NCBI GenBank assembly: GCA_013239625.1
Contig: MU053881.1
Coordinates: 14,934,373-14,998,372 of the forward strand
DNA: 64,000 nt
Origin: Lama guanicoe
Lineage: Eukaryota
Direction of reading: 5' to 3'
The position numbers and the translations under genes were made by a program. Position 1 is the stretch's first letter; every line of letters starts with the position of its first letter. The notes beneath the pieces were generated by a model. It was given only the letters and a program-made list of their open reading frames with translations, did not search any database and was not told the origin of the DNA. Positions 12,315 to 62,944 of this stretch are shown in pieces.

Positions 12315-19680
<7,366 letters not shown>

Positions 19681-25419: not shown

Positions 25420-25665
25420 TCACAGACGATCCATCCGGAAGGTATCCTCAGTGGCCGGGTCGGCCAGGACCATGTCTGGGTCATTGAGCATGTGCAGTCC
25501 GTCCAAGGTCAGGGGGTCAATCTTGAGTTCATCCAGGGGGAACTGGTTGTCAGAGTCGAAGCTGACATCACCGACCCCGGCAAGCGTGCTGGTCAGTTCT
25601 TTAGAGAGGCAGGGAGGGGCCTCTCCTGTCATCTTTAGAGAGGCTGGGAGGGGACTCTCCTGTCA
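25420..25665 (-). CDS. CRTC1: CRTC1 terminal exon coding part (transactivation domain), with 34-bp duplicated 5' end
   Basis: ccccag| [11 protein letters not shown]..., then [62 protein letters not shown]; the functional acceptor is uncertain. Confidence 0.9.
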
Positions 25666-28600
25666 CTGGGGGGGGGGGTGGGCAGGGGTACAGAGGAAAG
25701 GCTCAGCTCAGCCCTGGCTCTCCGCACCCACACTCTGTGCCTCAACAGCCCCCGTCAATGCTCAGGCCACATCAGGGGTGCTCACCTGAGTGGTCTGTCC
25801 CCCAGGGGACATTTGCAATGTCCAGGGACAGCTGCTGTCACAACTGGAGAGAATGCTACTGGCATCGGGTAGGTGGAGGCCAGGGATGCTGTTCAATACC
25901 CCACAGTACATGGGATTACCCCAACCCAGATGTCAGGGCGCCAAGACCAGGAAGCCCTGGGATAACGGCTGCAACACAAACTTCAGTGTGACCTGGTGGG
26001 AGCAGGGGTCTCTCCCACTTGGCCAGGTTCTACCAGGTGGTCTGCTCTGTGTGCATCAGGAGCCTTCCTGTGGGTTGGAGGGAAGCCTGGGTTTCCCGAT
26101 GGAGACTCAGGTTCAAACCTGGGCTCCCTCCTCTACTTGTGGTGGGACTCTGGGCCTCAGTTTCCCAATCTGGGAAATGGATGTGAAAGTTCTGGTCTTT
26201 CTGGGCTGTTGGACAATCATAGGTCCTGATCCTTATCACACAACCTCCACCACTAAGGCCTCCACTCCCAGAGCATTAACTGCAGACCCCTGGGGCAGGG
26301 AGAAAACACCAGGTCTGCACTGGGAGTCCAGGCCATGCAGGGGCTCTGGACAAGGACCCCTCCATCCTAGAGATGTCAGTGGGGACTTCTGGGAGGGTCT
26401 CACCCTCAATCCCATGACAGCCCTGGCTTATAAATAAGGAAACTGCTTCCTTCTTTGATAAAACCCAGAACCTTCAGGGGCATGATGAAGGGTGGGGGAA
26501 GGGGGACTGAAGGGTCTGAGCTCTGCTGGCCAGAGTGAAGACTTCCTCACACGTGCATGTGCATGTCTGGGTGCCTGGGCACTGTGCTCAGGCCATTCGG
26601 GGATGCCTGACACAGCATGTGGGAGCTGTTACACGTCTGCTGGCTGCACAGGAAAAGCCCCACTAGGCAGTGCCCACCCCATTGTCACTTGAGTCCCCAG
26701 CACACTCAACTAATGGGGTTTAGGGGTCTGAGCAATGGAAGAGGGGATAGGTGAGCGACTGGCTCTATCCTGTGCTCACTCTGAGCCTGGGATACTGGAC
26801 ATTTGGTCCAGGACCCAATGTGTGTTCCCCCCAAGCCTGTCCCATATGCCCAGCAGTGAGTCAAGGTTGTTGTCAAGAGGTGTTCTGGTCTCCCTGGGTC
26901 TGCACCAATGCCTCAGCCCTGTCACACCTCACCCTGCGGGGTGGGGACTCCATTTCCCCCAGGGCTGTGGCCTCTCACAGCAGCCTGGTCCCAGCCTTGG
27001 ACCATGGGACCAAAACCCTCACCCAAGACACCGGCATGGGTGGCCTCACCTGTGAGGATGATGTTGGGGATGCTGCTGTGGCTGGGGTAGCCGAGCTGCT
27101 GTGAGTCAGGCAGGCTCCCGTGGCTGCCTGTGAGGCCCATCATGGCGGCCTGTGAGTAGTTGAGCGTTGAGCCCGGGCTGTACAGGCTGCTGGAGCTGAT
27201 AGCGTTCTCCATCATGTTGAACTGCTCCAGCTGGGAGAGGAAGCACACAGGCATGAGGCCAGCCCCATGGAGCTGGCCATCCTGGGGCCCTGGCTGCTGC
27301 TGGCCAGCAGGCTGGCCTGCAGCCACTGGCACCCCCTCCCCTGTAAGACACCTAGTATCCATGCTAAGGTACACCTGGGGCTGCCAAGCATGAGTCTCTC
27401 CACCTTGGGGTCTCCCTGTCTCTGAACCTGCTCGAGTCTGCCAGCACACAGCCCCTTCAGGGCTTGCTGGATGGATGGATGGATGGATGGATGGATGAGC
27501 AAGTGAGTTACCAGCTCCAGGCAGCAGCCAACCCCTCCCATGCCCACACGCCCCCAACCCCAGCCTCCACACAAAGCCAGTGCAACCTCCCGGCAAACCC
27601 ACGTGCAGGGCCCCCATCAAGGCACCAATGTAAGAGCCACCACGCATCCCTGCCAGCGTTCACCACTCGCCCTTCCGCCCCCTCTGAGGGCAGCCTCGTT
27701 CTGCGGGCAGGGTGCAGACGCCAGGGGAGGCAAAGCCAAGCCACCCACTCCAGGGCCTGGGCCTCTGCAGCATGGAGACAGGAGAGGGCTGAGAAGTTCA
27801 CACCCGAGGAGTGGGTGGGGTCTGGCGAGCGTCTGCGGTGGGCGCCCGCTCACCTGGTGGGACAGAGCATTGGCCTGCCTGGCCGCCATCTGCTGCTCAA
27901 AGTATGAGTCCCCAAACACGCCGCCCAGGGTGGAGGAGTGCTGCAGACAGAAGAGAGGCCCGCTGTCGTCAGGATCCCCAAATCAGGCAGGGGGTGAGGC
28001 TACTGTGGGGTAAAGGGTGGGGGATGCCCCCATGGGCTGGCTGCACCCACACCCCTCTCCCGAGACCTCACCAGCTGGCCTGGGCTGGGAGACGAGGGAG
28101 GCCTCTGGAACTTCCTGGAGAATACTCAGGATGCAGGAGGCTGACAACGTCTATCTCAGGGCTCCTGGTAGAGCTCACACCCGCTGGGACGGACAGATGC
28201 ACCCTTAATCTTGGGATGACTGCTCTCGGGGGGCCTCTGTACCCCAACTTCCCCAAAAGTGCCATCCCATCTCCTCTCCTTGAGGCCCAGGTTGGGGTGA
28301 GCCCATTTTTGTCAGATGGGAGATGGGGGGACACATGATGGGGAACCCCACCTGGCAGGCCCTGGAGGAAAGTTCCTGGGGCAAGGTGGGAGGTACTCTG
28401 GATGTTCAGAATGGGATGTGCACGTGGTGACCCTTGTCAGATGTGGGGGACACGAGAGGGAGGCCACACACACGTGGGCAGGAAGGGTGCACAGAGTGAG
28501 CACGGGACAGGCACAAGGAAGCCCCTGCCCACCTGTCCACTCGTGGCTGCCTGTCTGCCTGTCTGCCTGTGAGGCCCCAGGGCCAGTCCTGCTTGTGCAA

Positions 28601-31600: not shown

Positions 31601-34600
31601 GGCGCACCCACACCCACGTACCCGTGCACATGGCTGCACACACGTGAACACGCACGCCCACACACATGGGCAGGGAAGGCCCAGGGCCAGTCAGATGGCC
31701 TTGAGGGGTGGCAGGACTGACAGTGAGGGCTGTCTGGGGCACGCTGCAGGGCTCCCGGTGCCAGGCAGTCGCTGTCACTGATGTTGCTTGGAATGAGCCT
31801 GCTGGGGTTATACTGTCCACAGACTTCTAAAGGGCAGCCACCCCCTCACTTGGAGGACAAAGGGCCTTGGCTTCTCACCAGATCCCTTGGGGGCAGGACG
31901 GGCCAGGCCAGGACCTGGATTTAGACCCTGTTCTGGTCCCACTCAGTGAGGCCCTGCTGTATACCTCTGGGCAAGCTATCTAACCTCTCTGAGCCTGCTG
32001 TTCAGTGAGGCCCAGCCAGCCAACCCAGGGCCCCCTAAGTGCTACGTCTCTGTCTCCTTCAATTCCTCAGCAGCCTGTCCTGAGTAGTTTGGGATGGAAG
32101 TTGAGCCCAGGTTGGGCAGGGGGTCTGCACAGGAAAGTATGGGTATCAGAGACAACACTGTGGTGACTCAGCGACGACCAGCTCAGGCCTCCTCGGGGTT
32201 GGAAAGAGGAAAACGACCAAGGAACATTCTCCTCGCCTGGGTGGGTCTGCAGAAACACAGAAGCCACTGGAGCCAGAGTCCTGAGAGAGCCAGCACTCTC
32301 TTGGGGCAAAGTGGGAGTAACAGACGACACATGCCTTGACCTGAGAGCCTGGCCTGGACACCCCATAATTCCAACATCTCCCCAGCTCCACAGTGAGGAA
32401 CCACCCACATCCTCATTTAAGGGGACCCTTGAGGTCTGCCCTCCAAGGGGTCAGAGCAGCTTGGAAATGTGGGTCTCTACCTGTTGGGTTACCTGCCTGC
32501 CCTGCCCAGCTCAGGCGGGGGGCCTGTTCTTTGCAGAACACATGTTCTGATGACATTTATCCTGGGGCTGGCAGCCAGGGGAGGGCTGGCTGGGCCCCAA
32601 ACGTGGGTCCCTGTTCCTCTGGATCTAACTGTGACCACCTCCCTCCTACCAGGGAAATCAGGGTGAAAGTCTGAACAGTCAGGAAGGTTTGGGTGCAGGG
32701 GTCAAAACTTAGCACTTGTTACCCTGAGCCTGGCCACAGGCAAGGGGTCCCATGGTCTGAACTGCAGGTCCCCAGCCCAAGGCCCTGTGCTGTATGAAGC
32801 AGAGCTGGCTTCATCCCTTCTTCTCCTCCAAGTTTATCTCTATCCCTCTGGCTCCCAGAAACCCATTTCCCAGGCCCTGAGAGCTCTGTGCTCTCCCTGC
32901 CTCTGAGGTAGCCTTTTCTTGGGCGGGAAGGGCTGAGGGGGCATTTGGGCCCACGGGGGAGGGCTTGGCATAAGACATGCAGTGGGCCATCCTGGTGAAG
33001 TTTGGGGCACTTGACCCTTGTTCGTGCCTCAGGTTCCCCATGTATACTGGGGTGACGACCTTGGCTTGAGGATTCCAGGAAGAATCCCCTGTGGAACCCC
33101 ATGCCTCAGGCCAAGGTGGCCTCAAAAGCGGAGCCTCAAGGTGGCTGCAGATAAAGCCAGGTGCCCTGACGGTCCTCCTGTCAGCTCCAATGGGGGCCTC
33201 TCATAGCCCCCGGGGTTCCTCCCACACAAGCCTCCCACCCAGGCCCCACAGGACTCCATCGCCGGCTTACCGAGGCAATGTCGATCCCCATCGGTGGCTG
33301 GCCTGCATTCTCTGGGGGGGACTGGGGGAGAGAGGACGGTACCGTGACTGCAAGTGGGGGCAGTTGGGGCCCCCGAGTCAGGCTGGTGCTCGGCATCAAC
33401 GGGGGTGGGGGCTGAGGTGGTGGTGGTGGCGGCTGCTGAGAGCCTGCCTGGGTGAAGAAGGCGTAGGGCAGCTGCTGCTCCAGAGACAGGGCATCCATGG
33501 CCACGGCCTGAAGGGAGAGGAGGGCATCAGACAGGAGACACGCTCAGAGATGGGGTGGGGCTGGGAGCACCTGGTCCCCAGAGGACCCCCATCGGCCTGG
33601 CGTGCTTGGCAACAAGGTGATGGGCAAACAAAGGGATGTCCAGATCCTGGATCGGCGAAGTGAAGGCTTAGCAGGGAGGCCTCCCCCAGGACCCACGGAG
33701 GACCTGTCCTCAGCAAGCCTCTCTCACCGCACACTGAGCAGCAGCACCACCGTCTGCACTCAGAGACTCAGGATGCCCCCGGCCTTCCTGAGCTGGAGTT
33801 TCCCCACTGTGGGCAGGCACGGGGCACCACACTCTGGAAGCCTAGTGGGGAGCCAGCACCCAGCCCCTGTGGGGTCCTGCAGCGGGAAGGAACCCCCTCC
33901 CACCCTCCTCAGCCTGGCCCATCAAGGGGAGGCTGGAGACGAGTTGGGTGAGGAGACACTGATGTAGTCACTGAGCAATGACCAGCTCGGGCTTCCTTAG
34001 AGTTGGAAAGAAAATAGCTGGAGAGAAGTTTTCAACATTCACGAGTCTGTGCAGACAGTTCCAGGGGCAGGCAAGGGCTCCTGCCCTCTGAGGGAGGCTG
34101 GACGTGCCCAGGAGCTACAGCATGAAACACTTATCCGAATGCCAGCTTCTGATCAGCGGGGAGCAGTTTATGCCCCAAAGAGTGTTTCCGGAAAGGGAAG
34201 GCAGGACTCAGGGGTGGGGCATGGTGGGAGCAGAGAAGAGCCAGGGGCCACAGATGGAGAGACTGAGGACACAGCCACCAGAAGCCACCCAGGGCACTGC
34301 CTGGATCCTGGTCTGAACAAGAACTATACAAGCAGACAGTGACATACTGGGGAACTGGGCCCAGGTGGGTATAGGAAGGTATAGAAGAATTACTGTTCAT
34401 TTAGTTGTAAGTGGATAAGGTCATCGAGGTTATGTAAAGAAACAAACGTTATCTATTAGGGTCTGAAAAGCAGACAAAATGGACAAATTCCTCAGAACAC
34501 ACAAACTACCAAAACAGTCCAAAGAAGAAAAAGAAAATCTGAGTAGACTGATAAAAGTGAGATTAGATCAGTCATCACACAATTTCCAGTGAAGACATGC

Positions 34601-46600: not shown

Positions 46601-49600
46601 GGAAACTTGGTTCAAGGACAAGAAGAACAGGTTACAAAGGACTGGGCCACCTCTGACCCTGGGGCCAGCTGGGCAGAGAGGAGCCAGGAGGATCCTGCCC
46701 TCCCCTCAATACCAGCTGTGTGTCCCTGAGCAAGTGTTCTGACCTCTCTGTGCTCTTATACCTAAAATGAGGAGGATAACAGCACCAACTTCACCAAGCA
46801 CTGCACATCCTACATCAGTTAATGTATACGACGGTTGAAATAGCACCTGATACATGAGTATGACCTTGGTGGGTATTTAATTAGGTTACTGAATTATATA
46901 TTCGGTGTTGTGTTTATATATATATAATATGTATTATATATATATGTATTTTTTTAACAGCTTGCTTACTTTTGGTCTTTGTTTACTGAAATCACCTACG
47001 TATTTTTTTGTCTGTATGTATTGTAAAACAAACATGAAAACTGTCTTTTTAACCTTTTTTAAGTGTATACTTCTTTTGTCATTAAGTACATTTACACTGG
47101 TGTGTAACAATCACCTGTGTTATTTTAGGCATTTATATTAACTATACTATTGTTATTTAAGAACATTCTCACAACATTGTAAAATGATCATAAATCAATA
47201 AAAAATGTAAAAAAAAACATTCTAGATGATGGTATTATGGGTGGGTTTTTTTTTCCACTTTCCAGATGCACTTATGTATTTTTCTAATCTTCTAGTAAAA
47301 AATATATAATCCTTTTACAATCACGTTTTCTATGACTGTTCGGGAATGTGAGAAACCAATCATAATATAGCATTAATGGGAAAAAAGCAAGCCGCAGCAC
47401 TGAATATTCAATACAATCCCAACTTTGTTTGAAAAAGAAAAAAAAAATTTGTAAATAGAGAAGGGGAAAAAATAATCCCCAGAAGACCCCAAACTGTGAC
47501 CTCACTGTTAGAGGGCTAGAGCTGATTTCTAGAAACTTCTGGATTCTTCTTACTTTTGTCATTTTCAAGTGACTGAGTACTGGTTTTTCAAGCATGACCA
47601 TGAGGAAAGTATGGCTTTGTTTCCAATGAGAGGGCTGGGTTGGCTCTGAGTCACTGACCTTCTCCAGCTGGTGTCCGCAGGTGGCGAGAGGTACACGGTG
47701 CCGTATGGGCAGCTGTCCGCGTGAATGTGAGTTAAGGGGATGGTGCTGTCAGCTCAGGCCCGGCCCTGAGCCCTAGGAACCCTGCACTGGCCATTGGAGT
47801 AGCCAGGCTGCTGGAAGCCTGCAAACAGCTGGGGCCTCGGGGCGGGGGGCCTTTCCTGCCTGGCGGCGAGCAGCCCCCAGGGTGCAGCCCTGTCCACCTA
47901 GCACTCAGCACTCACCCCCTGCAAGCGCACGTGCGGGCTGCACCCCTTCCAAGAGGGGCCTCAGCCGTGAAACGGGGGCCCATGGGGGTGCTGCGGGGAG
48001 TCTAGTTCAGCTGACCCTGGTCTTGACTCTTAATTCTGGGCTGACGGGGCGGCTCCCGGGGCCCCAGGGCTTGGTCTGGGGCCCAGCTGGTCAGGCTCCC
48101 CTAGACCATGGAAATGAGAACCAGGAAAGAACAGGCTTCTCTGTTCTGGAGAGCCAGGGTTCCCAGGAGCAGCCACTCCGACTCCAGTGGTGGGGGAGCC
48201 TAGCTGGCCAGGCACCAAGGGGCAGCCAGGTGGGGGGAGTGGGGGGATTCCTGACAATCTCTCTGCTTGGCTGAGGTACAGAGGCAAATTCTATGTCTTC
48301 AGATCAAGCCTCACTCTGTTCTGTCTGGGTCTGGCTCAGATCCCCCTCAGCCCCACTGCCTTGGCTCGGCTGCCCTCCATAAGGCCCTAGAGGGGTCCAC
48401 CGCCACGGCCCTGACATGTAAATGCTCTGCTTGCAACCTTCCTGGGCCCCACTGCCCAGCCAGGAGTCTGAGCACAATGTGGTCCAGCTTCATCCTCCCA
48501 ACTCTCATCTCAGAATGTGTGCTCCAGTGGCCATCTCTGTGTCATTGGTCCTTGTGCTCCCCTAGCCCTTCAGCTCACATTGCATCCTCCAGGATGTCTT
48601 CTGGGGTTGCTGTGCAATTGTACTCCCTTCTTGGTGCTGCCCAGTAGCCCTGGAGAACTGGAGAAGCCCTGATTCCATCCCAGAGCTGGCAGCAGGCAGC
48701 TCTATCAGCTAGATGAAGCAGTCCCCTCCCCCCTCCTCTGGGAAAAGGATATCTGCCTTCCATGTTTGTCCACTGACAGGGGCCGGCGATGTGGGGAGCC
48801 GAGCCGGCCACGCTCCCGGTACACTCTGTCCACTAGCCCATGGTGCCGGGTAGTTCGGCTGGTGTCCAGGCCCGAGGACTGGAAGGGTGTCTGGGGATGG
48901 GAAGGGGACCAACGTTGGGATGGAGGAGAGGAAGAGATGGGAAAAGAGAGAGAGAAACCCAAATCACAGTTACCAGCTGTGGTCTGAGATCCGACCCCAG
49001 CTCTGTCCCCCAAGATCTGACCTCAGGGTCCCCCCACAACCCTCCCTGTTCAGGTCTGGAGACACCATCAGCCACTCTAGGTGGGCTTCTTTTCCTCCTG
49101 CGGCCCCTGCCCCAGGTCTCTGAGCACTGTGGGGCTGGAGGTGAGCTGGGGTTCCCGGGCGCCAGGGCAGCAGGCGTGCAGTGCAGCCGGCATGCACGGG
49201 CCAGGCAGAGCGGCGCAAGCTCGGGACCTAGTGCTGGCCAGGATGCCAGGGGTGCAGACGGACTGAGCACCGCCCTCCCCCACCCCCAGCCTCGCCAGGT
49301 GCAGACAGGCCTCCGCCCTCTCTCTCCAGGCCTGGCCGGCCTCCTCTCCCCACCTACGTCATCCCTGGAGGGGCCTGCCAAGAGACAGCCCCGGGGCTTC
49401 CAGCCCAGGACGTCGAGGGGCCCACCTGGCCAAGTGCTGGCTCCCTGGAGGCTCCTTGTTGAGCCTGGGGCTGGTCTTGGTTGAGACTTGGCCTCCACGC
49501 GCCCTCCCCCACAGCCTTGTCCCAGCACAACCGGGAGCCAAGTGCAGGCACTTTCCGGAGCCCTGGCCTACGGCTTGGCCGGACAGGGCTCCCTTCCAGC

Positions 49601-51792
49601 ACCTGGGGCTGGCATGAGGCCCCTGGCCAGGCTCTGCTCCCACTCCTGGCTCCATGCTCCTGGGGCCCCCAGGAACCTGCTCTCTACATGTCCTGGCGCC
49701 AAGGGCCCCTCACCATCTGACTGGGGTGAGACTGGCAGTGTTAGCTAGCTCTGGATGCAGCCCGTCCCCCTGCCAGGCCATCTGGCCCTTGGGCCCTTCT
49801 GTCTTCTCTGGGAAGCCAGGCAAAAAGCAATTTCCTCTGGAAGACTGCCACTGGCTGGCTCACTGCTCTTCCCCACCCTCCAAACAACCTGGCTAGCATT
49901 CAGGGCTGCCTGCTCTCCCTGGCATTCAGGGACCCCTGTCTCTCCCTAACCCAGCAAAGACTCTACCAATTTGGGTCTTTCTGCGCTTTTGTCTCCAAAA
50001 GGCTGTGGGCCCAGGAAATGGCAGTGACCAAGGGAGTGTAGGAACCTTGCCACCCAGGCAAAGACATCAAAGGACAGGGGCCATTCCTCTCCTCCCAGAG
50101 ATGCCTGGAAGCCAAGAGGGGAAATCGAGGCGGCTGAAGCAGAGCCAGAGGCAGAGAGAAGCTCAGGCCCAGCCACAGCCTGGTTCACCAGGCCGGATCC
50201 ACACACACACGTGTGCGTATGTCACAGGAACGAACCATGCAGCGTTGGTGCGCATGCTCAGATCCCCCAGGCAGGGGTCTCTCGACGCGCCCACACGCAC
50301 TTCCCCAGACGGGGGTGCAGAGCGGATCTGTTTCCATTTGGCAGACAGGACACCTCCTGCTGGGCCACGGGGGCGGCCGCTCAGGGATACCCAGCGCCCG
50401 CGCACGTGCCAGGGATGCCGAGGCCTCAGCCCAGGGGCTCATTTACCAGAGAGACAGGAGCCGCTGTCAGAGCCTCCCCCAGAAATCCGCTGGGCTGAAA
50501 ATGCAAAGAACCGAGACTTTGAGACACTCCTGCCTCTCCTGGCCCCCCAGTGGGAAGCCCAACAGGGCCCCGTGCACCCTCAGCTCCATACTGGTCCCAG
50601 GCAGGGCCAAGCTAGGGGGTGCCCAGAGAGACACTCTCCTAGAGGGGGAAGGGGAGAGCCAGGGAGGAGGGGAGAAAACCCAAACTAGAAAGGGCACTGA
50701 CAAAGAGGTCAGGCTTTGATGCACACCAGGATCAGCAGGACAGCCCCACTCATCTGCTCTGATGAGGAGGCCATCTGAGGAGGGCTATGCTCCATGGGCC
50801 CAGGAGATAGAGCTGAGCCGGCTGGACCCCGAGGCAGCCTGAGGGACCCTGGGTTGGTGCCCTGCTGCATCCCAGCAGCAGTGTGGGAGGAGTAGGAGCT
50901 GGGGAGTGACTTGGGCGGGTGGGTAGGGGCTGAGCTCCCTGAAGGACTGACCCAGTACCACCTGGCCTGTCAACACACTAATGCACGAGGCTGTTTCTGA
51001 GGCTTTGTCCCAGCAACAGGATAGGTGTGTGGCTACCTGATGAACCTGTCCCTGCATAGCCTAGACATTGTGCTGAGGGTGGCCCTACCTCTTGGCCCAG
51101 CTCCTGGGCCCACCTTGACCCCACTGCAGACCAGCGGCTGGGGATGTGGCCTTGGGGAAGAGGCTAGCCCAGCTCCGGGCAGGCAGTGGCCCTTATCTCT
51201 CCTTATTTACGATAAGGACGTGCACGGCAGCTACATGGCCTGCGGGAGCCGCGCCGTGTGGGTCTCTGCCAAGAAACGTTTGCAGACAAGTGGGGTCAGG
51301 CCACGGGGCCTCCTTCTGAGAATTGCTGGGCTTGCGGATTAGTGAAGCGGGATGGAGCCAAGCCCCAGAGGCCCTGAGCGGTTCCCGCTGCTGCACACCC
51401 GGCCAACAGGTGTAGCGGCTGCCGAAACACTCAGGGCCAGACCATGGCCTCACTGTGGGGTCTGCTGACAGAGGATGGGCAGGGGGGATCCGGGAGAAGC
51501 CTGGCCCAGGGGGAGGAAGGGAGTAGGCGGGGGTGGGTCGGGCGGCAGCAATCATCTGGTGACCCCAGCTGTTCACAGGCTGTCATGCGTGCTCACTTGC
51601 TCTGTGGCCAGGGCGGGGCCCAGACTGCAACACGTCCCAGGTGGGAGGTGGTGTAGGGGAGGGATGGGGGCTCACCTGGAAGGGCAGATCCACAGTGCCG
51701 CTCCCAATCTGGTTCACGTTGGGCAGGGACCCGCCGTAGTACTGGCCACGGCTTGGGCCCAGCTGCAGGTACTGGGACTTTTGGAGCTGGAG
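25420..51792 (-). CDS. CRTC1: CREB-regulated transcription coactivator 1, exons 2-last (5'-partial; exon 1 outside window)
   Basis: Minus-strand join 51792-51676,(alt 50494-50447),48890-48753,47720-47659,45934-45840,43772-43687,40803-40763,40279-40059,35381-35248,33507-33271,31320-31216,27940-27854,27230-27050,25665-25420. Motifs [34 protein letters not shown]-terminal [13 protein letters not shown]. The last exon carries a 34-bp duplication (see findings). Confidence 0.97.
25772..25965. mobile_element. MER20 (hAT-Charlie) DNA transposon remnant
   Basis: cccccaggggacatttgcaatgtcc...gctactggcatc...gaggccagggatgctg. Confidence 0.8.
27050..27230 (-). CDS. CRTC1: CRTC1 exon 13
   Basis: tcccag| [20 protein letters not shown]...[10 protein letters not shown] |gtgagg. 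Confidence 0.96.
27467..27496. repeat. (GGAT)n microsatellite
   Basis: About 7 perfect TGGA units. Confidence 0.9.
27854..27940 (-). CDS. CRTC1: CRTC1 exon 12
   Basis: ctgcag| [29 protein letters not shown] |gtgagc. Confidence 0.96.
29428..29565 (-). mobile_element. tRNA-Ala-derived SINE (Vic-1-like) with 10-bp TSD
   Basis: tRNA-like body and (TAAA)-rich tail; TSD CCTCACATTT at 29418-29427 and 29566-29575. Confidence 0.9.
31216..31320 (-). CDS. CRTC1: CRTC1 exon 11
   Basis: tcacag| [35 protein letters not shown] |gtaagg. Confidence 0.96.
33271..33507 (-). CDS. CRTC1: CRTC1 exon 10 (Pro-rich)
   Basis: cttcag| [20 protein letters not shown]...MGIDIAS |gtaagc; 79 codons. Confidence 0.95.
34250..34935 (+). 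mobile_element. Old L1 fragments (3'UTR piece and ORF2 pieces)
   Basis: aaatggacaaattcct...caagaagaa..gaaaatctga; ggtgaattctaccaaacatttaaga; gaagaggagggaacacttt. Confidence 0.8.
35248..35381 (-). CDS. CRTC1: CRTC1 exon 9
   Basis: tttcag| [15 protein letters not shown]...[12 protein letters not shown] |gtgcga. Confidence 0.96.
40059..40279 (-). CDS. CRTC1: CRTC1 exon 8
   Basis: ccccag| [44 protein letters not shown]...GIGGAGQ |gtaagg. Confidence 0.96.
40763..40803 (-). CDS. CRTC1: CRTC1 exon 7
   Basis: tttcag| [13 protein letters not shown] |gtaagt. Confidence 0.95.
43262..43399 (-). mobile_element. L1 3'-end fragment with poly(A), fused to the U6 copy
   Basis: T-run then ttgagataaaattgacatataacattatattagtttcaggtgtataacataatg, a typical antisense L1 3' terminus. 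Confidence 0.8.
43400..43502 (-). pseudogene. U6 snRNA retropseudogene (near full length, diverged)
   Basis: Reverse complement reads ...GGCAGCACATACACTAAAATTGGAATCATACAGGGAAGATGAGCATGGCCCTCGAGGATGACACGCAAATTCACAAAGCGTTGTATATTTTT, matching U6; the ACAGAGA box is mutated to ACAGGGA. Confidence 0.93.
43687..43772 (-). CDS. CRTC1: CRTC1 exon 6
   Basis: ccctag| [29 protein letters not shown] |gtaagc. Confidence 0.96.
44240..45590 (+). mobile_element. Old MLT1-type LTR fragments (about 44240-44520 and 45090-45590)
   Basis: ccagctgtgcctgaag; gccctggatcaaactatacctgaag...taagccaat. Confidence 0.5.
45840..45934 (-). CDS. CRTC1: CRTC1 exon 5 (SIK/AMPK 14-3-3 site RTNSDSALH)
   Basis: ctccag| [31 protein letters not shown] |gtatca. 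Confidence 0.96.
46700..46880 (+). mobile_element. MIR SINE
   Basis: cagctgtgtgtccctgagcaagtg...gacctctctgtgc...taaaatgaggaggataacagcacc. Confidence 0.7.
47659..47720 (-). CDS. CRTC1: CRTC1 exon 4
   Basis: ttcac| [20 protein letters not shown] |gtcagt. Confidence 0.95.
47721..48752 (-). other. CRTC1: U12-type (minor spliceosome) AT-AC intron, 1032 bp
   Basis: Donor ATATCCTTTT, branch site TCCCCTTAAC (47740-47731), terminal ...TTCAC; joins KHGRQ to ADSCPY in frame. Confidence 0.93.
48753..48890 (-). CDS. CRTC1: CRTC1 exon 3
   Basis: ccccag| [46 protein letters not shown] |atatcctttt (U12 donor). Confidence 0.96.
50447..50494 (-). CDS. CRTC1: CRTC1 48-nt cassette exon (long isoform)
   Basis: ttttcag| [16 protein letters not shown] |gtaaat; phase 0/0; resembles the 16-aa insert of the long human isoform as I recall it. 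Confidence 0.85.
51676..51792 (-). CDS. CRTC1: CRTC1 exon 2
   Basis: ttgcag| [39 protein letters not shown] |gtgagc. Confidence 0.96.
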
Positions 51793-60024: not shown

Positions 60025-60418
60025 TCTGAGTTAGCTCGGGCCATCGTAATGAAATACCACAGACTGGGTGGCTTAAACAGCAGGCGAGTATTTCTCACAG
60101 TTCAGGAGGCTGGAGTCGAGGTCAGGGTGCCGGAGTCGAGATCAGGGTGTCGGCGCTGTCTCTGGTGAGAGCCCTCTTGCTGGTCTACAGAAGGCTGCCT
60201 TACCCAATGTCCTCACATGGCCTTTCCTCGGGGTGGGCAAAATGAGAAATGTCTCTTTTCCTCTTGTAAGGACACCAGTCCTATCGGATCAGGAACCCAC
60301 CCTTACAACCTCATTTCATCTTAGTCACCTCTCGCAGGCCCCATCTCCACATACGGTCACACTGGAGGTTAGAGCCTCCACACAGGAATCCAGGGGACAC
60401 AATTCAGTCTGCAGCACC
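60025..60418 (-). mobile_element. MLT1 (MaLR) LTR
   Basis: aaataccacagactgggtggcttaaaca...tatttctcacagttc...taaggacaccagtcctatcggat. Confidence 0.88.
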
Positions 60419-61408: not shown

Positions 61409-62944
61409 CTGACGAGCAGACTCCATGGGGACTCAGAAAGAAGGCAGGGCCACTTAGAGTCAAGCTTGGGGACCCTGAGATTGTGTGGTTGGGGAAGGTC
61501 AATGATGAGAATCCTCCAGTCGATAGGCCAGTGTGAAGAATGAGGGAGTAAGGGTCCAGGGAGAGGGAACAGCAGGGGCAGAAGTGCAGGCCCAAGAAGA
61601 GAGGAAGGACAAGTCCAGGCCAGCTGATGGGCAGTCACTGTAGAGTAGGCGGGAGGGCAACACTGGTGCCCAGACTAGGACAGCACAGGGGGCAGTGAAT
61701 GTCCAGCTGGAGACCCAGGGGCTGGTGATACCACAGGGGACTCATCAGGTAGAGGGTCTCAGCACACTGGGGGCCACAGAAGGGCTCGCGCCTAAGACAT
61801 GCCACCCAGAAAGGTCCTGAAGGCATGCCTCCATGACCCCAGGCCAACCCCACCCCAAGGTCCTGGGGCTGCACTGGGTGGAGCAAAGGGGATGCAGGGT
61901 CTCTTGGGCACAGAGCTCGGTCCTGACTGCACACCTCCCTCTGGCCTGCATCTGGGCACCACATCCCAGGAGGCTGGGGCAGGAGCCAGGGAGCAGAGGC
62001 CTTAACAGTGTGACTGCCCCCAGCCCCCTGTAGCCACTGACTGCAGGGCTATAGCACATCACCATCTGGACCACAGGGGGCTGTGTGCAGCAGGCCAGGA
62101 GAGGCAGGAGGGGCCTCAAGTGAGAAGCAGGGGAGCCATGCTTTGCAGGTCCACATGCGGCCCAAAGGCCAAGTCCAGTGCTACCAGCAGGACTGACCAG
62201 AGACGCCACCCACCTGATCCGACATCTCGGAGTCCATGAGAAAGGAGGCCGAATGTCCCATGGGCATGAGATGGCCTGCCAGCCCAATCCTATTTGCCTG
62301 AGCACCAGGTTCCTGCAGCGAGGCCGAGCATCCCCTAGGCAGGCAGCCTAGCCCAGCACATGGGGAGGCCCTGTCTGAATGGCCCAGGGCACCTGGCTTC
62401 ACCTTTGATCTCTGGAAGCTCTCCCAGCCTCCACGGGGGCTGCTTGGCCTGAGCCCAGCAGGAGGCTCTGGGGGAGGTCCTGGGGCTGGGGAGCTCCAGG
62501 CCAGTGGGGCTTCCAAGAGTGAGGCAAACAGAATACAGTAAACTACGAAACAGATCAGGCTTGAAGCAGTTACTCGGAGCTGCTCGTGTATATTATGACT
62601 GCATTCTAGCATTACTTGATTTCTGGAGCTGAGATCTAGATCTCTGATATTTTTAAGTCCAAACCCCTTGGACACTGCAGCTCTTTCCGGGTTTTGCCTA
62701 TCCACAATTCATTCTGTGCAGCTAATTAAGCTGAACAAGCCTGGGAATAAAGTCTGGAACAAGGTTAATAAAGTTACTTGCCTAGCAAAAAAAAAAGGGG
62801 GGGGGGTGGTCAGGACAATGCACACTCCTGACCCCAGCAGCCTTGCTGGGTGGCAGGGCACAGCGGGAGCGGTGCTTTCGCGGGAGCAGGAACCCTGACC
62901 CCAGAGGCCCTCTAGGTCCACCCCCTTCTTGGGCACTATACAAG

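Follow-up and report, generated by a model that had tools for sequence, protein, structure and literature searches.

The closest described counterparts of the locus reported here are the RefSeq models of CRTC1 from the alpaca, Vicugna pacos (XP_072803437.1 and XP_072803438.1), and from Camelus (XP_032321108.1, XP_064336113.1 and XP_045364104.1), whose exons, exon order and TORC_C tail are those of our window, the 64-kb stretch of DNA that was analysed. In these models a single copy of the peptide in question is encoded at the start of the last exon and the poly-proline tract is whole, whereas the window encodes two copies of that peptide and is short of 25 poly-proline codons. Two further camelid records, KAB1259322.1 and EPY79919.1, are abnormal at the very site affected in the window, the first 11 codons of the last exon, but are garbled and skipped there, respectively, not duplicated.

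Lesions of comparable appearance have been described in other genes. Excerpts of Kim et al. 2022 (PMC9516821) present older assemblies in which a C/G-rich exon carries a gene-breaking lesion that is absent from better assemblies of relatives, as here; the cases in those excerpts were proven by read mapping and comprise small indels or large haplotype duplications, whereas the window holds a 34-bp copy that is known from the assembly alone. The polymerase-theta-linked duplications treated in excerpts of PMC7368036 indicate that a head-to-tail copy, such as that of the window, is possible at a stalled replication fork. Those duplications measure 1 kb to 1 Mb and bear junction microhomology, in contrast to the 34 bp found here, which lack it.

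Gene identity and state of the region

By its sequence, the gene is an ordinary camelid CRTC1 of the South American type, CRTC1 encoding a coactivator of the brain. Its best named matches are CRTC1, and the exon set is full save for exon 1, which falls outside the window. The penultimate exon is identical in 11 fetched proteins, all from alpaca or camel, and 470 of the 472 aligned residues agree with the alpaca model, the differences being V311I and Q370P, in addition to one 25-residue gap; two camel models differ from the window at two further sites, at both of which the window has the alpaca residue. The V311I change (35381 to 35248, minus strand), seen against the alpaca and camel models alike, is a single conservative difference. 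The parts of the gene at issue are:

27050 to 27230, minus strand: penultimate exon, 181 bp, with a phase-1 donor; of the fetched records, only camelid ones match its 60 residues in full
25666 to 25678, minus strand: canonical acceptor of the last exon, a C11 tract followed by AG, unaltered by the duplication
25632 to 25665, minus strand: copy 1, the opening 34 bases of the CRTC1 last exon, which fit the conserved protein
25598 to 25631, minus strand: copy 2, which holds both mismatches (25620 and 25611), giving Ser to Ala and Ser to Cys at conserved serines
25601 to 25603, minus strand: premature TAA, reached when the canonical acceptor is spliced
25420 to 25597, minus strand: remainder of the last coding exon and the natural stop, with the TORC_C domain intact
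33400 to 33432, minus strand: second CRTC1 lesion, an in-frame loss of 25 codons from the poly-proline tract, with Q370P beside the gap, relative to the alpaca and camel RefSeq models

The neighbour of CRTC1 is COMP, whose first 18 exons give 741 codons with no stop and with canonical splice sites, and whose last exon was also located. The region as a whole is neither decayed nor badly assembled, COMP and the other CRTC1 exons being intact.

Two further observations concern these genes. The CRTC1 intron at 48752 to 47721 (minus strand) has AT-AC ends, with ATATCCTTT at its 5' end and CCTTAAC just before its 3' end; splicing it at the AT-AC ends restores the exact protein, and we take these ends to fit the minor-spliceosome (U12) consensus. 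In COMP exon 13 (17081 to 17083, plus strand), an Arg stands where human COMP (PDB 3FBY) has Gly, just past five consecutive Asp residues in a calcium-binding type 3 repeat; a change in the lineage or an erroneous base could explain it.

The 34-bp tandem unit and the CRTC1 reading frame

The assembled letters hold two abutting 34-bp copies (period 34, 2.0 copies, minus strand), a description that says nothing beyond the assembly. The first-pass annotation had reported exactly this, two adjacent copies with 2 mismatches right behind the C11 acceptor, and they are present as it stated. The copies differ at 25654/25620 (T>G) and at 25645/25611 (A>T), copy 1 encoding the conserved GESPPSLSK and copy 2 GEAPPCLSK. 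Copy 1 begins at base 1 of the exon, immediately after the acceptor AG (25667-25666) that the C11 tract precedes. On the plus strand this tract is a G11 run (25668-25678), the longest of the six G/C runs of at least 9 in the window, and it lies 2 bases from the 34-bp unit. Local GC around the unit is only 0.57-0.67.

An adjacent copy of this kind is not a product of chance, since about 6e-10 would be expected in the window; a period above 20 is found in only one of the window's five adjacent two-copy matches, and that one is the 34-bp pair. The junction is free of microhomology: the unit's last base is not repeated just ahead of it, nor its first base just behind it. There are no N letters in the window and so none at or near the junction, an absence that is compatible with a false duplication, because a closed gap leaves no N. 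A new ATG is made at the junction and would open a 70-residue ORF.

Elsewhere in the window, two-copy tandem repeats occur at 60112-60153, 49896-49947 and 49306-49349, with periods of 20, 26 and 21 and a match of 83-90%. An A10 run followed directly by a G10 run (62787-62806) is another likely error-prone site.

Use of the canonical acceptor puts the last exon out of frame, with loss of the TORC_C activation domain. Joined from donor 27050 to acceptor 25665, the reading frame continues for 21 residues and then stops, against 70 residues in relatives, while TORC_C (PF12886; E 1.1e-30, profile positions 6-75 of 75) is recognized in the frame of copy 2 (P0001). The earlier reading of the locus was correct on the gene, the frameshift, the lost activation domain and the placing of the stop in the last exon. 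A stop codon in the last exon lets an mRNA escape decay. According to excerpts of PMC8886117, the N-terminus of CRTC1 binds CREB and the C-terminus activates. If the allele exists, it encodes a decay-escaping truncation that keeps the CREB-binding end, because the premature stop sits in the last exon. Dominant-negative action of such a protein would fit this domain layout; no reporter study of the inhibition of normal CRTC1 by a truncated form was among the literature matches listed.

The domain layout is one of the points in favour of a real, recent and probably heterozygous loss-of-function allele private to the sequenced animal, an explanation that we consider unlikely. Its route, to which we likewise give a low probability, would begin with a fork stalled at the G-run or at a G-quadruplex, after which error-prone restart re-copied 34 bases with two errors. 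Its outcome, no likelier in our estimate, would be use of the canonical acceptor, an mRNA that escapes decay, retention of the CREB-binding N-terminus, and hence a hypomorph or a dominant negative. A G-quadruplex-pattern match on the plus strand (25668-25688) does begin at G11 and abut the unit, and stalled forks or breaks can give rise to tandem duplications (excerpts of PMC7368036). The pattern is, however, unspecific, since it has 53 matches across the window, and the junction lacks the microhomology borne by the duplications in those excerpts, which are at least 1 kb long.

Acceptors downstream of the canonical site

Counted from the canonical acceptor, AGs at +22, +40, +43 and +67 restore the frame; their scores come from a crude model whose training set was the window's 28 real acceptors (range 0.1-13.8):

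25644 to 25645, minus strand: in-frame AG at +22 (before 25643), the first site named in the first-pass annotation; score -5.5, under all 28 acceptors
25626 to 25627, minus strand: in-frame AG at +40 (before 25625), the second site named there; score -0.7, under all 28 acceptors
25623 to 25624, minus strand: in-frame AG at +43 (before 25622), absent from that annotation; score -12.0
25599 to 25600, minus strand: in-frame AG at +67 (before 25598), at the end of copy 2, also absent from it; score 4.4, above 8 of the 28

The canonical acceptor scores 11.6, above 26 of the 28 training acceptors, and by this crude model none of the four rescue sites (-5.5, -0.7, -12.0 and 4.4) is competitive with it. 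The best rescue candidate, as modelled, would be the AG before 25598, which joins directly to ELTS, as in the model EPY79919.1, and whose pyrimidine tract is lengthened by the A>T mismatch. That the same mismatch abolishes the cccAG of the second copy had been pointed out before and holds, as does the claim that the AGs at 25643 and 25625 restore the frame; the sites at 25622 and 25598 had been missed. What finds no support is the switch that had been proposed, in which splice selection yields either full-length or dominant-negative CRTC1: the acceptors named for it score -5.5 and -0.7 against 11.6, and the +22 and +40 products occur in none of the 263 fetched proteins. If the allele is real, its main product should be the truncated protein, the canonical acceptor being unaltered and first in line, and any leak should most likely pass through 25598.

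Rescue by an in-frame AG, most plausibly 25598, is the means by which a change fixed in one South American camelid lineage would have been tolerated, an account that strikes us as very improbable; that splicing would choose between full-length and truncated CRTC1, the outcome it entails, is just as hard to credit. The account can draw on the presence of four in-frame AGs, on the score at 25598, which falls within the real-acceptor range, and on the wild-camel model, which joins at the equivalent position. It also draws on the make-up of the matches, where the comparison covers alpaca and camels and vicuna, guanaco and llama proteins are absent. Yet the canonical acceptor is unaltered, comes first and is far stronger, and the alpaca RefSeq models are single-copy though the window is of the alpaca type. 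Downstream-site use is confined to EPY79919.1, canonical residues continuing in 176 of the 193 proteins compared. Furthermore, Crtc1-null mice are obese, and infertile in one of two studies, according to excerpts of PMC8886117, so that partial loss of CRTC1 should cost fitness. A South American camelid CRTC1 allele that combines a G-run replication error, escape from decay, loss of the activation domain and a leak of near-full-length protein through 25598 is, in our judgement, improbable.

As a separate matter, a further AG lies 6 bases into the last exon (25659, minus strand) and scores 8.8; its use in a single-copy gene would delete two residues without a frameshift. The damaged KAB1259322.1 model apparently starts at this AG.

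Relatives, draft models and the origin of the second copy

In the best 120 of 2143 matches to the last-exon peptide, the canonical peptide is present 119 times; in the one remaining protein (P0003), Cys naturally replaces the second serine. The first serine is conserved in all 219 matching proteins and the second in 216 of 219. The two mismatches, both non-synonymous, are confined to copy 2, and neither the copy-2 peptide nor the frameshifted tail nor the truncated form was found among 263 fetched proteins; GEAPP recurs in one other protein (P0128), near the N-terminus, and the tail of that protein is normal.

Eleven camelid records share the identical penultimate exon, of which nine have the normal single-copy tail and none the duplicated one. 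These nine are isoforms from about four annotation sets (alpaca, wild camel, dromedary and Bactrian) and therefore amount to about four witnesses, not nine independent animals. Current RefSeq models of the alpaca and of three camel species are single-copy, and the comparison with other assemblies that the first-pass annotation had suggested comes out in favour of one copy at the protein level, for alpaca and camels. The junction-ATG ORF was not found among some 15 billion proteins, its 69 matches including none above 96% identity, and exact look-ups of two copy-2 ORFs gave no match. This absence tells against a private allele, but the look-ups carry little weight, for want of an identified single-copy camelid genomic ORF to serve as control. 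In a search of sequencing runs, 20 of the 24 rows listed hold the stretch, and the best DNA runs share 0.87-0.93 of its words, none reaching 1.0, which indicates ample sequencing of near relatives. Since the duplication affects only 51 of 2371 words (2.2%), these shares do not discriminate between a single and a double copy and were used solely as a rough ceiling on divergence.

The two abnormal records among the 11, EPY79919.1 from wild camel and KAB1259322.1 from dromedary, are older GenBank drafts, and both depart from the norm at the same 11 codons: the former leaves out the unit's 11 codons and no others, and the latter is garbled there (GEIPSQLSKTS). The newer RefSeq models of both species are normal at the unit. 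A similar picture is given by the poly-proline tract, the only other structural CRTC1 lesion in the window, whose segment, 35-37 residues long in all 48 matching proteins, has 11 in the window, a length found in no fetched protein. KAB1259322.1 is garbled in the poly-proline exon too, and the gap at 33400-33432 is probably a second local assembly error; a private allele would need this second CRTC1 lesion to have arisen independently, at a place where another draft is garbled. The last-exon skip of EPY79919.1 may reflect how the model was built or genuine splicing at the TAAAG acceptor, and its poly-proline skip is also present in a RefSeq isoform (P0145); because both skips have other readings, KAB1259322.1 is the one record with clear damage at the two sites. 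This record presumably comes from the gap-filled dromedary assembly. Excerpts of PMC6618069 describe a dromedary assembly gap-filled with 11x PacBio reads, Pilon and Sealer, and the published llama, guanaco and vicuna assemblies are short-read SOAPdenovo builds in excerpts of PMC7331169.

Had the duplication arisen naturally, it would have to be younger than the divergence from the alpaca reference haplotype. A recent germline duplication is expected to be near-identical, and here 2 of 34 bases differ, both in one copy; the microhomology expected of duplication by slippage or TMEJ is absent. On a clock whose divergence is rough, being taken from the run word shares, the probability of at least two mismatches in 34 bp is 0.0015-0.013 at a divergence of 0.16-0.5% and 0.046 at 1%. 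The copies are therefore unlike a young natural duplication, 2 mismatches in 34 being too many for their age by this clock.

Two other origins were considered and rejected. RNA-templated write-back is ruled out by the absence of upstream-exon bases at the junction, and a hairpin-driven origin by the folding of 25560-25720, which is no better than that of shuffles (z -0.78).

Because relatives are single-copy and other drafts are damaged at the same place, the second 34-bp copy is, on the sequence comparisons, very probably a false duplication that arose in sequencing or assembly beside G11, and in the animal itself the unit is most likely single and the tail a normal one of 70 residues. Mis-assembly beside the G-run, put forward at first only as a fallback, thus becomes the best-supported reading. 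The site has the character expected of a place that is hard to sequence, with the longest G/C run of the window and 2 of 11 camelid records abnormal there. Coverage or read quality would have fallen at the G11 run, and the exon-side sequence would have ended at its edge carrying two miscalled bases. This exon-side piece would have overlapped the intron-side piece by 34 bases, and the two may have been abutted rather than merged, at a contig join or during gap filling. In keeping with such a course, excerpts of published work report error rates raised downstream of homopolymers (PMC13202175), sequencing errors after G or C (PMC3334598), as well as spurious SNPs and indels in exons rich in GC (PMC9516821). 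No report of a small-overlap abutting artefact of this type was apparent from the titles and abstracts of the literature matches listed.

Against an artefact, and in favour of a private allele, stands the quality of the window elsewhere, which is gap-free and clean in the COMP exons and across 472 CRTC1 residues (2 differences and one gap). Error-prone repair, moreover, can produce mismatches in one event. The modest local GC and the natural Ser>Cys change of P0003 also tell against an artefact. No report of a natural CRTC1 truncation, or of CRTC1 in camelids, was among the literature matches listed, which were ranked partly by camelid words.

If the second copy is an artefact, more than one draft is faulty at two C-rich stretches of camelid CRTC1, and an apparent loss of function there is therefore not credible without reads. 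If it is true, an activation domain that hardly varies has been truncated naturally in the window, in a gene without which mice become obese, and the allele would offer a ready model for the dominant-negative action of CRTC1 in a livestock lineage. A splice-tuned, dominant-negative CRTC1 would, in that event, be expected to affect appetite, fat or fertility in these animals.
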